From a virus (lineage: Duplodnaviria > Caudoviricetes): a stretch of 64,000 nucleotides of DNA. This document shows positions 7,830-39,210 of the stretch, one piece after another (position 1 is the first letter of the stretch; every line of letters starts with the position of its first letter). The stretch is from positions 1 to 64,000 of the IMG/VR virus record IMGVR_UViG_3300021255_002052. The stretch is one strand, 5' to 3'. Made by a program: the position numbers and the translations under genes. A model generated the notes under the pieces. The model did not search any database. It was given only the letters and a program-made list of their open reading frames with translations, and was not told the DNA's origin.

Positions 7830-9068
7830 ACGGAGAAAAAGTTCACTTGCCATGTCAAGGTCGTCGACGCGATGATGGGCACCGGCAAGACCAGCGCGGC
7901 CATCAACTATATAAATCGGAATCTCGGAGAGAAGCGCTTCCTATATATAACGCCGTATCTCGACGAGGTCGACCGCGTAAAGCGATCCTGTCCCGGCGCG
8001 AAATTCTATTCGCCGAAGCCGTTCACGAATACGCGCGGCGGTAAGTTTATAGATCTGAAAAAGCTTCTCCGGAAAGGCGAGAATATCTGTACCACCCACG
8101 CGCTTTTCCAGTTATTCGACCGCGAGTGTATCGACCTCTGTCTCTACCGGGATTACGTCCTGATCATGGACGAGGTCGCGGAGGTCGTTAGCGGCTACGA
8201 AATCGGCGAGAAGGACCTGGCGGGGTTATTAAAACTATACGCCTACGTCGAGCCGGAGACCGGGATCCTGCGCTGGCGGGACGACCAGGCCGACTACCGC
8301 GATCCGTACTATCAGAACGAGAAGCGGCTAATCGATCTAGAGTCCCTCTGCGTCTACGGATCCGACCTAACGCTCTGGCTCTTCCCGGTCGAGGCCTTCA
8401 ACGCGTTTTCGGAGATCTATATCCTGACCTATATGTTCGACGGTCAGATTCAGCGGTACTACTACGATTACTACGGCCTACCGTACGAGTATCTCTACGT
8501 TCGCGGCGATTCGACCGACACCTACGCGTTTTCTAGCGAACCGGGGCTCGAGAAGAAGTACGACTACCGCGCTCTCCTCGAGATTCTCGACAACGAGCGG
8601 ATGAATAAGATCGGCGACCCCGAATTCGCGCTTTCGAAGAACTGGTACGCCAGGAATCTCGACAATCCACAGATTAAGGAGTTAAAGAGCAACCTTTCTA
8701 ATTACTTTCAGAATATCCGCCGCTCTCCGACTTCCGACAATCTCTGGACGACTTTTAAGGACGCGAAGAAGCGCCTATCCGGCAACGGCTATACGCGCGG
8801 TTTCCTATCCTGTAACGCCCGCGCGACGAACCAGTATTCCGACCGTCATAATATCGCGTACCTGGTCAACCGCTATATCAATACGGTGGTCAAACAGTTT
8901 TTCGTAACCCACGGCGTCGAGGTCCTCGAAGATCGATTCGCGCTGTCCGAGATGGTTCAGTTTATCTGGAGATCCGCGATTCGGCGGGGAGAGCCGGTGT
9001 CCGTATACGTGCCGTCGAGCCGGATGCGGCGGTTACTCGAAACCTGGCTAGCCGAGGTATCCGCGTAA
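7830..9068 (+). CDS. SF2 (DEAD-like) helicase / replication protein, probable ACG start
   Basis: VVDAMMGTGKT Walker A, LIMDE Walker B, QFIWRSAIR motif VI-like; SD GAAAGGGGTGA precedes ACG at 7830. Confidence 0.7.
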   Translation, partial: TEKKFTCHVKVVDAMMGTGKTSAAINYINRNLGEKRFLYITPYLDEVDRVKRSCPGAKFYSPKPFTNTRGGKFIDLKKLLRKGENICTTHALFQLFDRECIDLCLYRDYVLIMDEVAEVVSGYEIGEKDLAGLLKLYAYVEPETGILRWRDDQADYRDPYYQNEKRLIDLESLCVYGSDLTLWLFPVEAFNAFSEIYILTYMFDGQIQRYYYDYYGLPYEYLYVRGDSTDTYAFSSEPGLEKKYDYRALLEILDNERMNKIGDPEFALSKNWYARNLDNPQIKELKSNLSNYFQNIRRSPTSDNLWTTFKDAKKRLSGNGYTRGFLSCNARATNQYSDRHNIAYLVNRYINTVVKQFFVTHGVEVLEDRFALSEMVQFIWRSAIRRGEPVSVYVPSSRMRRLLETWLAEVSA

Positions 9069-9126
9069 ATTCGGAATAGAGATCCGCGATTTTGAGAATA
9101 TAGATTATAGAAAGGAGGCGATACTT

Positions 9127-10161
9127 ACGGAATATATAAAAATCAGCGAATTAAAACCACATCCGCGAAACAAAGAATTCTTCGACGACATAACCGGCGA
9201 GAAGTGGGAGGAATTCAAGGAATCTATCCGCTCGATCGGCGTAGTCGAGCCGGTAGTCATAACGCCGGACAAGACTATAGTTTCCGGCCACCAGAGAGTC
9301 CGCGCGTGTAAGGAATTAGGGATCGACGAAGTTCTCTGCGATATGCGCAGCTACGATTCCGAGGATCAGGTACTACAGGCGTTAATCGAGACTAATATCC
9401 GACAACGCGGCGACATCGGCGGATCCGCGAAGAAGGTAGGGCGGAGAATCGTAGAATTGGAAAGGATTTACGAGATTAAGAACGGATCTACTGAATTTCA
9501 GGGTAACCAATACAAAGAGGTGGTACGAAAAAAATTCACACCACCTAAAACTCAAGAAGATGTGGCCGCCGAGATGGGTTTAGATCTTAGGACGTATCAG
9601 AATTACAAATGTTTAGCCGACATGATCCCCGAGCTAGAAGATTTAGTCGACACCGGGATTGTTAAAAAGACTACCGCCCTAGCCATAATGAGGGAACTCT
9701 CGCCTGAGGATCAGAAAGACTTTATAGAATCTCTCCCCGAAGTTGAGAAACTTACCGAGAAGAAAGCTCGCGAATTGATGGCGGAGTATAAGGACGAGCG
9801 CGATTCTTCGGAAAATAACGAAGAACTAAAGCAGAAATTGCGGGATGCGGAGAAAGAGCTCCGAATGACGGAAGAAGAAAGAAAAGAATTCAAGAAGAGA
9901 TATACAGAAGCCGCCGAGGAAGTAAAACGGCTCAAAGATACCGTCGGAAACAGTAAGACTTTACAGTCTGCGACTCTAGAGATTCAGTTACTAACCGCTG
10001 CGACTAATGAATATATCCGCCGACACGCCGGGAAGGTATGGGTTTTCAACGAATTTGATCAGCTAGATTCCTCGGTAAAGGAAGATTTCATTAAAGCGAT
10101 TAAAGCACTAGACGGATTTGCTCAACAGCTAATTATAAATTTAGGAGGTAACATTACATGA
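9127..10161 (+). CDS. ParB-N domain DNA-binding protein, ACG start
   Basis: In-frame extension upstream of the tracked ORF gives LKPHPRN...SIRSIGVVEPVVI...IVSGHQRVRACKELG; AAGGAGG lies 8 nt before ACG at 9127. Confidence 0.85.
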   Translation, partial: TEYIKISELKPHPRNKEFFDDITGEKWEEFKESIRSIGVVEPVVITPDKTIVSGHQRVRACKELGIDEVLCDMRSYDSEDQVLQALIETNIRQRGDIGGSAKKVGRRIVELERIYEIKNGSTEFQGNQYKEVVRKKFTPPKTQEDVAAEMGLDLRTYQNYKCLADMIPELEDLVDTGIVKKTTALAIMRELSPEDQKDFIESLPEVEKLTEKKARELMAEYKDERDSSENNEELKQKLRDAEKELRMTEEERKEFKKRYTEAAEEVKRLKDTVGNSKTLQSATLEIQLLTAATNEYIRRHAGKVWVFNEFDQLDSSVKEDFIKAIKALDGFAQQLIINLGGNIT

Positions 10162-36930: not shown

Positions 36931-36956
36931 TTTTTGAAGAAAGGAGGGAATAAGAC

Positions 36957-39210
36957 ATGCCTAGAATTATGACATATTCAGCGCATATGCTGGACGCTTT
37001 CAAGAATGATGTAAACAATATCGTAGCTTTCTAGTCTCTAATGATGGATACGAGTAATCGCAATTATGTCAAGTATCCGCATGATGAGTCTAATGAAATG
37101 ATCCGCGCTCAGCTCAATAAGGTGCTGGGAATTGACTATAAGACCGCTTCCAATATGGAACGCAGATAGGCCATGAGACTTCACGGTCCTGAAGCTTACT
37201 CTCTGGTCGAGACTGTTCTTGTTGAGAAGCTTCAGTCCGGCTGGGATTCCAATAACGCTTTCTTCATGAATTATGTGGAGCAGAGGAATCTGGCACAGGG
37301 TGACATGAACGAGTTCTACGTAGAGGACAATAGTCTTCTAACGGTAAGCCGTTTCGCTGGAAACCATCATGACGTTAATTTTTATAGCGTCCGTGTAGCG
37401 TGAGCTGCATGATAAAATACGCATCTAACTGCTGGAAACCCTTAAAGCTAACTAAACCACTACGTGGGGATGAAATAAGCCCGAGCGTGACGGTGACGAA
37501 AGTAGAAAAAATTAGTTAGATGGCATAAGGTTAAAACCTAAGTGCTGAAACAATAGGCAATCAGCAGCCAAATTCCGAACAGGAAGAGGTTCAACGACTA
37601 TCCCTTTGGTGGGCTAATCCCCCACAACAGGAGTACGGCTCAAGCGAGTAGGTGAAAATCCTTTAAATGGAAATGGTGCGTCGTTATATTATTATAACGA
37701 AAAGATATAGTCTGCTCACGGGTGAAAGATCCGTGGGATATTTAATATCCGACAGGGAATAGCGCCCCTACAAAATTATTTCCCCTTATACCCTTAAAAG
37801 GAGCGATTAAAACGAAAGATAAAATTTCTGGGATTTACTGCATCAGAAATATAGAGAACGACAAGAGATATATCGGACAGTCTATAGATATTCATGATAG
37901 ATGGAGACGGCATATAAGTGAGTTGACCAATGGGAAACACCACAACGACCATCTTCAAAAATCATGGAATAAATATGGAGAAGATTCTTTCTAGTTTGAT
38001 GTATTAGAGGAATGTCCTGAAGATTAGCTAGATGATAGAGAACGTTTCTATATTGACGTGTACAATACGATGGACGGGGATTTCGGATATAATGAAAAAA
38101 CTGGAGGATAGGCTGGCAATCATTATTCTGAACAGACACGTCTAAAGATGAGTGAATCTATAAAACGTACTTTTCTAGATCCAAATAGAAGAAAGATACA
38201 GAGTGAAAACGCCTTGAAACAATGGGCGAATCCGGAGATAAAATAGAAAATTCTTGGAGAAAATAATGGTATGTACGGAAAACACCATTCTGAAGAATCC
38301 AAGAGAAAGATGGGCGAAGCCAAGAAGGGACGACCTTCATGGAGACGCAATACGACTCCGGTTTTCTGCGTTGAATTGGATCAAACATATGACTGCGCTG
38401 TCACCGCAGCTAAAGAGCTATCGTTAGATAGTTGTGGCATATTAAAAACATGTAGAGGAGAACGCCATACATGTGGTGGTTACCATTGGAATTTTGTTTA
38501 ATAGGGAAAATAATATAAGTCAAACATAAGGTATTAGACAGGCTTTACTGCCCGGCAAGTCTTTCGTCATTGATACCGAGTGGAAGGTCATCAAAGTTTA
38601 TGCTGACTTCCGCCTGATGATGACTGGTCGTATCGACTTCGCTGAGTTCATCGACCGTTGCTACAGATCTATCGAAGTAGACCGTTACGACGCTATCTAT
38701 GAAGAGTTCATGGCTCTTGACGATGCTATTCCGACCGATCTGGTTAAGGGTATTACTTTTAGCGAGAACACTCGTACCGATATTATCGAACACATCGAGA
38801 CAGTCGCTTCTGCTGCCGGATCCGAAGTTACTCTTGTAGGAACCCGTCCGGCCCTTGAGAAGCTTCAGTCCACTGTTAACTACAATATGTGGTCTGATGC
38901 GATGAAGGATGAGCGCCACAATAACCAGATCCTGGGTAACTGGGAAGGTTATGAGCTTCTTCCGCTTCGTAGAGTTAATAAACTGAATACTTTCCAGTCT
39001 GTTTTCACCGCAGCGGACAACAACAAGATCCTCGTTATGCCGAAGAATATGGACAAGCCGATCAAGCTTGTTGTCGAAGGCGACGTGGAAGTTTACGAGG
39101 GCGGCCGTGACGGCATGAAGAAAGACATGACCGTTGATACTGAGATCCAGTACTGCGAAGGTGTCGGAACAGTCGTTAATCAGTACTTTGGCGAGATCAA
39201 GATTCAGTGA
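36957..39210 (+). CDS. major capsid protein, split by an intron (exons 36957-37375 and 38532-39210; TAG recoded)
   Basis: Spliced junction reads SRFAGNHHDV-IRQALLPGK in frame; position in the head module. Confidence 0.85.
37376..38531 (+). mobile_element. group I self-splicing intron
   Basis: P1 GACGT/GCGTC with U-G at the splice site; P AACTGCTGGAAAC (37427), Q AATCAGCAGC (37559), R GTTCAACGACTA (37589), S AAGATATAGTCT (37702); terminal G at 38531; P10 ATA/TAT. Confidence 0.9.
37812..38501 (+). CDS. intron-encoded GIY-YIG homing endonuclease with NUMOD3/NUMOD1-like C-terminus (ACG start, TAG recoded)
   Basis: SGIYCIRNIENDKRYIGQS, HLQKSWNKYG, MYGKHHSEESKRKM, GGYHW; four in-frame TAGs. Confidence 0.9.

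Follow-up and report, generated by a model that had tools for sequence, protein, structure and literature searches.

We analysed the first 64,000 nucleotides (nt) of the tailed-phage record IMGVR_UViG_3300021255_002052 (the window), and observed seven genes whose translation very probably begins at ACG, a codon that in the textbook view is a non-start in bacteria. The ACG codons lie at 7830, 9127, 12196, 17636, 24671, 32780 and 37812, each at the 5' end of an open reading frame (ORF) and 7-9 nt past a Shine-Dalgarno (SD) sequence aligned on GGAGG (Table 1). They provide the starts of 7 of about 110 genes (~6%). We take ACG to be the start position in these genes because it is conserved in relatives, because orthologs and paralogs carry ATG at the same codon, and because the ACG genes are compensated by stronger SDs. 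A first-pass annotation, made by a model from the letters of the window, had listed ACG at SD-optimal spacing at these seven coordinates, and every one of them was borne out. The contig-wide scans described here covered the whole 109,771-bp viral contig to which the window belongs; it was judged to be ~60% complete, and this is the scope of every whole-contig negative result.

ACG is the only recurrent non-canonical codon behind strong SD sequences

Coding ORFs were called with TAG as a sense codon, and each in-frame codon across the full contig was given a score for SD complementarity. At an SD score of at least 7 and a spacing of 6-10, the in-frame codons of coding ORFs were ATG in 28 cases, ACG in nine, GTG in six and TTG in five. 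The nine ACG codons comprised six of the gene starts in Table 1, two internal codons and one codon at 25801. About 20 strong-SD gene-start sites had no ATG, GTG or TTG; seven of these (25801 included) had ACG and no other codon was repeated, an enrichment with a binomial P of ~1e-7 at the 2.1% share of ACG among codons. This tally, which the first-pass annotation had proposed, leaves ACG as the sole recurrent non-canonical codon after strong SDs. A separate scan, ORF by ORF, recovered exactly the seven sites and 25801; the SD of 24671 scores 6, and this site was picked up by the per-ORF scan only. No ATT, ATC, ATA or CTG starts were seen in the contig with the per-ORF scan.

At 9127, 17636 and 37812 we found no usable in-frame ATG, GTG or TTG, as had been claimed. 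The next canonical codons downstream would remove the ParB N-terminus, the motif shared among the paralogs (17636) and the GIY motif (37812), respectively. The ACG at 17636 also aligned, as had been noted, with Met1 of its paralogs, which start at ATG 16349 and ATG 17115. For the other four sites the sole alternative had been given as a GTG inside the SD; this did not hold for 12196, where an in-frame ATG (12142) also exists 18 codons upstream, within the preceding gene and without an SD.

The eighth candidate, ACG 25801 (AGGTGATC, spacing 6), was rejected. It lies inside a ClpP-like gene in another frame, which the relatives L123 and L124 close with a TGA three codons on. The next gene starts at ATG 25861.

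Table 1. Genes with an ACG start and the suppressor tRNA gene (positions in the window)
Gene	SD	SD position	ACG (or extent)	End	Strand	Remark
YonV-like helicase	AGAAAGGGGTGAT	7813-7825	7830-7832	9068 (stop)	+	first gene of rightward operon
ParB-like gene	AGAAAGGAGGCGAT	9109-9122	9127-9129	10161	+	ACG kept in relatives
58-amino-acid gene, function unassigned	AAGGAGGTGAT	12181-12191	12196-12198	12372	+	SD contains TGA stop of preceding gene
132-amino-acid gene, third of three tandem paralogs	AAGGAGGTGATC	17620-17631	17636-17638	18034	+	residue-for-residue match to paralog Met1
54-amino-acid gene downstream of phage RNA polymerase gene	AGAAAGTGGTGA (imperfect)	24654-24665	24671-24673	24835	+	weakest case
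Portal, 5 in-frame TAG	AGGAGGGGGTGA	32763-32774	32780-32782	34324	+	SD contains TGA stop of terminase
GIY-YIG homing endonuclease (I-TevI-like)	AAAGGAG	37797-37803	37812-37814	38501	+	directly 3' of group I intron core
Suppressor tRNA, anticodon CUA			28566..28657		+	92 nt, long variable arm

The ACG codons are conserved in relatives or alternate with ATG

We compared start codons of homologs in contigs of related phages (L and G numbers), which had been assembled by others from different samples and studies. At the sites with homologs for comparison, either ACG was conserved, or ATG stood at the same codon in orthologs or paralogs. Among independent assemblies, ACG was present in 9/9 for the portal gene, 7/7 for the ParB-like gene, 6/6 for 24671 and 4/7 for the helicase, and at the conserved sites the adjoining synonymous positions and flanks varied. 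The reverse case was also seen, as the gene at 11103 has ATG in the window and ACG in L026 and L126. The GIY-YIG-like paralogs of L026 include one on ATG and one on ACG.

The helicase ACG was kept in L026, L027 and L126 despite different flanks, and in L028-30 a weak SD precedes an ATG that lies one codon further upstream. Going by the N-termini of helicase homologs (M-x-F-x-C-x-V), Met1 falls no more than 1-3 residues from the ACG. The ACG of the ParB-like gene was kept in L027, L028-30, L126 and L127. In more than 100 ParB homologs Met stood at exactly the ACG residue, with an equal residue count before the L-K-P-H-P-R-N motif; closer relatives are miscalled in databases (truncated or extended), retaining Thr at the ACG position. 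No in-frame canonical codon was present upstream of the ParB ACG, and indels not divisible by 3 were found just 5' of the SD. Such non-triplet indels upstream of SDs indicate that translation does not come from further upstream.

A block consisting of SD, ACG and GAA TAT (9109-9135) is common to the ParB-like gene and a GIY-YIG-like gene of L026 (L026:12205-12240). Contigs of runs X5 and X7 match the window up to 9135, and then carry 730 other letters instead of 9136-10722. This junction is a gene swap that carried the ACG start along.

The portal ACG was found at equal SD spacing in L008/G1, L009/G2, L032, L055, L038 and L120-122, and the N-terminal residues differed. Two of these, the IMG/VR phages L008/G1 and L009/G2, have portals at 71-72% protein identity. 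More distant portal relatives nearly all start at TTG, 12-13 nt past AGAAAGGAGGT, which makes a weak start characteristic of the portal gene family.

Orthologs of the gene at 17636 have ATG at the same codon in L028, L029, L120, L121 and L126, one of them being 89% identical in DNA. From these alignments, the T>C change that gave the ACG at 17636 is recent and belongs to the window's lineage. The ACG at 24671 was kept in five contigs of two lineages (L120-L124), the ATC that precedes it was not, and the differences downstream fell mostly at third codon positions. This gene is the weakest of the seven: its SD is imperfect, and the GTG that lies in frame 9 nt before its ACG is conserved too. A 4.6-kb RNA-library contig ends at 24632, between the RNA polymerase stop (83 nt back) and the ACG at 24671 (39 nt ahead); this contig end may mark a transcript 5' end, although contigs cannot prove it.

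For the endonuclease at 37812, residue 6 aligned with residue 3 of I-TevI, and no canonical codon came in frame before residue 38. A group I intron core (37366-37735, plus strand; Rfam RF00028, 61.9 bits) lies immediately upstream, and the intron probably carries the endonuclease gene. A single split gene may have its exons in the ORFs at 36957-37403 and about 38530-39210.

Other start codons, sequence artefacts and RNA editing

It is very unlikely that translation begins elsewhere, at the GTG inside the SD or at an adjacent ATC, ATT or ATA, with the ACG being only a conserved threonine codon. A GTG does lie in frame 9 nt upstream at 7830, 12196, 24671 and 32780, and ATC is found immediately before the ACG at 17636 and 24671. 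However, this GTG belongs to the SD consensus and lacks a separate SD, an alternative codon of this sort is missing at 9127 and 37812, and the preceding ATC drifts (AAC in L120; CTT or ATC at ParB) while the ACG does not. Orthologs carry ATG exactly on the ACG codon, and the third-base G never shifts to other Thr codons, although ACG makes up 28% of Thr codons. We give even less credence to the explanation that the DNA truly reads ATG (through an error of sequencing, assembly or base modification), or that the mRNA is edited from C to U. Every site is a T-to-C difference from ATG, and editing of ACG into AUG starts is known in plant organelles. Yet the same ACGs were present in contigs from at least eight other samples and assemblers, and the internal ATG, TGG and TGY codons (Met, Trp and Cys) were intact. 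RNA-library contigs of the source sample (X13) covered 11989-12299 and 24632-27699 with 0 differences from the DNA, and read ACG at 12196 and 24671, which are 2/7 sites (7830, 9127 and 17636 are not spanned; DNA carry-over is possible, and contigs drop rare variants).

Extended SD sequences and the likely mechanism of initiation

The duplex energy of the SDs had a median of -18.6 kcal/mol for the ACG starts, as against -11.2 for ATG genes (Mann-Whitney p=4e-4). The SD of ATG orthologs was usually weak, the exception being L126, in which the 17636 ortholog has ATG together with a strong SD. At 12196, 17636 and 32780 the stop of the upstream gene lies inside or beside the SD, and termination-coupled reinitiation may help at these three sites.

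Passive near-cognate initiation by the ordinary initiator tRNA, with extended SDs and a low output, is the best mechanism for these starts, and we consider it likely. The unusually long SD:anti-SD duplex at optimal spacing would hold the 30S subunit, which in three cases would also be delivered by termination of the upstream gene. The ordinary initiator formylmethionyl-tRNA (fMet-tRNA) would pair with ACG despite the mismatch at the middle position, and the outcome would be a Met-initiated protein made at a low rate. Compensation by a strong SD is what passive near-cognate initiation by fMet-tRNA predicts. A low output would suit genes that are needed sparingly, such as those for the portal, the intron homing endonuclease, the ParB-like protein and the helicase; the portal is present in only a few copies per virion. 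The deliberate down-tuning that the first-pass annotation had put forward is plausible: the low-dose genes and the weak portal starts throughout speak for it, and part of the ACG pattern looks like a by-product of the TG-to-CG bias described below.

In E. coli, ACG does initiate, mostly with an N-terminal Met, in the class of 0.1-1% of AUG (Hecht et al., bioRxiv 10.1101/063800). Such an output seems very low for helicase and ParB-like genes that swap freely with ATG between close lineages, and this weighs against our interpretation, together with some features of individual sites. No ortholog was retrieved for the 12196 gene, nor for the 37812 gene. The ACG at 17636 was seen in this contig only and could be a slightly harmful mutation, and at 7830, 12196, 24671 and 32780 a GTG in the SD is, at a spacing of 8, automatically in frame. 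The free ATG/ACG swapping, despite the weakness of ACG in E. coli, suggests that ACG may be better tolerated in the host than in E. coli.

Composition bias and the choice of ACG

Every canonical start codon contains TG, and the change of ATG to ACG is a TG-to-CG transition. The CpG/TpG odds ratios were 1.26/0.80 genome-wide and 1.55/0.48 around the helicase and ParB-like genes. The CpG excess and the TpG/CpA depletion were strongest at 7501-10000 of the window and at 85-87.5 and 92.5-97.5 kb of the contig (up to 1.57, down to 0.48); an AT-rich leftward gene array at 100-110 kb showed neither. Synonymous codons ending in a pyrimidine (Y) had C in 58% of cases before G, as against 37-46% otherwise.

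Across relatives, a weaker CpG/TpG bias went with fewer ACG starts (Table 2), and these starts were confined to the CpG-rich, TpG-poor members of the phage family. A strict orphan-SD screen used in this comparison left out sites with GTG inside the SD and so under-counts ACG starts. A bias favouring CpG and avoiding TpG would make ACG the weak start; AT-rich, TpG-rich relatives take TTG. In our reading, composition bias supplies ACG variants, and selection keeps those for which a low output is acceptable or useful. As ATG/ACG turnover is frequent, the neutral component would be sizeable.

Table 2. ACG starts and CpG/TpG odds ratios in the window contig and its relatives
Contigs	ACG starts	CpG/TpG
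Window contig	7	1.26/0.80
L026, L126	3-5 per about 15 kb	about 1.26/0.76
G1	3 in 134 kb	1.05/0.90
G2	1 in 175 kb	1.10/0.96
Distant relatives	0 in about 830 kb; TTG heavily used	0.65-0.71/1.13-1.17

Non-adaptive origin and licensed initiation as possible alternatives

The bias could also account for the ACG starts by itself, and this non-adaptive explanation is a serious possibility, although we think it is not the probable one. The starts would be real and would arise from a TG-to-CG mutation or repair bias (e.g. T:G repair towards C:G), and ACG would be merely tolerated, given a strong SD or coupling, and not selected for tuning. The CpG excess and TpG/CpA depletion at synonymous sites agree with this, and so does the way in which ACG-start counts track composition bias across relatives. 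ATG/ACG swaps are repeated between close lineages (the recent T>C at 17636 included), and ACG alone is used, never ATT, ATC, ATA or CTG. On the other hand, the portal and ParB ACGs are held without reversion across lineages down to 55-71% protein identity, and weak portal starts persist even in TpG-rich relatives. The stronger SDs are specific to ACG genes and imply selection on output, and no C5-methyltransferase gene was found in the contig (Pfam C5 DNA methylase search).

We consider it unlikely that ACG initiation is licensed, that is, made efficient (conditionally or not) by a trait of the host lineage or by a phage factor, so that the ACG genes form a gated set. Candidates for such licensing would be relaxed proofreading by initiation factor 3 (IF3), a special initiator tRNA, or a fall of IF3 during infection. 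A licensed state in which proofreading is relaxed (e.g. by a drop of IF3 after host shut-off), akin to the gate relaxing during infection that the first-pass annotation had proposed, would turn on the middle/late portal, helicase, ParB-like and endonuclease genes, and in our view this too is improbable. Consistent with it, all seven sites are on the middle/late strand and none is among the ~45 leftward early genes, and the free ATG/ACG swaps in the helicase suggest a handicap of ACG smaller than 100-1000-fold in this host. The phage has also rewired translation already, by recoding TAG and carrying tRNAs of its own. Against it, the compensation by strong SDs matches passive near-cognate initiation. 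The first-pass annotation had suggested a search for an initiator tRNA with anticodon CGU and for homologs of initiation factors; neither a tRNA with CGU in a canonical loop (ARAGORN, Rfam) nor an IF1 or IF3 homolog (Pfam IF3_C, IF3_N, IF1) was found in the contig, which are weak negatives at ~60% completeness.

The tRNA anticodons found were UAG, UAA, UAU, UUG, CUA and GUU, along with two odd tRNA-like genes at 15295-15378 and 15877-15990 (plus strand). These two have Rfam matches and similar acceptor stems, were missed by ARAGORN at its default settings, and have enlarged anticodon regions (22 and 48 nt, as against 9 and 7 in the tRNA model). Their folding gave no clear anticodon. Without a 39-nt insertion, 15877-15990 has a perfect CU-GGU-AA loop (tRNA-Thr GGU), and neither of the two is CGU. 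The UAA tRNA (labelled Leu; 14315-14388, plus strand) is 74 nt in length and has no long variable arm of the kind typical of bacterial tRNA-Leu. In G1, a cluster of tRNA genes at 52428-53345 (minus strand) included three for which ARAGORN reported anticodon loops of non-standard form ('???', two-base anticodons).

The phage and its genetic code

The source is a large, SPbeta-like phage with TAG recoding, found in animal gut or rumen and presumed to infect a Firmicutes-type host. The helicase shares 42% identity with SPbeta YonV, and the Pfam families YonV_C, YonJ_N, YonG_N, YonD_N and YonB, which represent the SPbeta yon gene set, matched genes of close relatives. This identity and these matches place it as SPbeta-like. 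The ribosome-binding sites are of the Firmicutes type (AGAAAGGAGGTGATC), and gut metagenomes of at least 10 studies, bovine in many cases, contained near-identical DNA. When genome contigs were searched with the helicase, we obtained relatives of at most 39% identity only (metagenome-assembled genomes of Paenibacillus, Clostridiales and Oscillospiraceae), none of which points to a host. Single-protein searches of viral contigs with ParB and the helicase gave distant relatives only, and no helicase or ParB homolog was found in G1 and G2 (the records of L008 and L009).

TAG is a sense codon in the late genes, which end in TAA or TGA, as in a code-15-like genome. With TAG read as sense, fragments merged into long ORFs, one of them of ~7,500 codons. 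Of the five in-frame TAG codons of the portal gene, three are matched in L008 and L009 by true Gln codons. The suppressor tRNA-CUA has a long variable arm, in contrast to this match with Gln, and the tRNA-CUA genes of G1 and G2 are 73-75 nt as against 92 nt here. In L120, L122 and L121 the ClpP-like protein is identical, and the late-gene calls are long in the first two records and fragmented in the third; this difference is probably due to the annotators' choice of genetic code.

Positions 14818-15620 of the window are hypervariable and lie beside a tRNA gene (14716-14788). Many contigs of three other runs omit ~800 nt here and carry varied short inserts.

Relation to known systems and significance

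Near-cognate starts in bacteria are policed by IF3, as with the AUU starts of infC and pcnB in E. coli. The ACG starts resemble these in having a codon other than AUG, GUG or UUG at an SD-defined P-site; reading as Met, a low output and dependence on a good SD would be further likenesses. They differ from infC and pcnB in that the codon is ACG, with a mismatch in the middle, which in E. coli is in the weakest class (0.1-1%) and is not known as a natural start. Also unlike infC and pcnB, they occur in 7 of about 110 genes, are conserved across phage lineages and show no evident autoregulatory logic.

Our literature search on ACG starts in phages or bacteria found only the E. coli study of 64 codons and the case of mycobacteriophage Corndog (Cluster O), whose tape-measure gene has ACG where sister phages have ATG (PMC4351075). 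In Corndog no canonical start lies upstream and peptides begin just past the ACG, and the choice between initiation and ribosomal bypass was left unresolved (PMC4351075). The Corndog case is similar in being a phage structural gene on ACG, at a codon where relatives have ATG. Corndog differs as a single gene of an actinobacterial phage, with no SD compensation, multi-gene recurrence or deep conservation shown.

ACG starts have been reported for VP2 of adeno-associated virus (AAV) and in other eukaryotic viruses. A weak ACG that sets a low stoichiometry of a virion protein, as in AAV VP2, is likely for the portal here; AAV VP2 relies on eukaryotic scanning and Kozak context, whereas initiation here is SD-directed and bacterial. 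In plant organelles, C-to-U RNA editing turns ACG into AUG starts, and there too a genomic ACG stands at the Met1 position of conserved genes. Unlike in plant organelles, the RNA-library contigs here still have ACG, and we know of no such editing machinery in phages. With its recurrence, conservation and SD compensation, the ACG set of this bacterial virus adds a new form to near-cognate initiation; it does not constitute a separate type of system.

Genes with an ACG start are cut short, extended too far or missed by standard gene callers. In ParB relatives the called start is an internal Met or the GTG of the SD, ~80 residues of the portal are lost and the 54-amino-acid gene is uncalled; at ACG-start genes, the annotation of this group of phages is therefore in systematic error. 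If initiation at ACG were licensed after all, licensing and TAG recoding would be two layers of control over the timing of translation. The ACG genes and their ATG counterparts are natural, comparable gene pairs in which the trade-off between SD strength and IF3 proofreading can be studied. In this family of phages, the choice of the weak start appears to follow dinucleotide bias, with ACG in CpG-rich and TTG in TpG-rich lineages.

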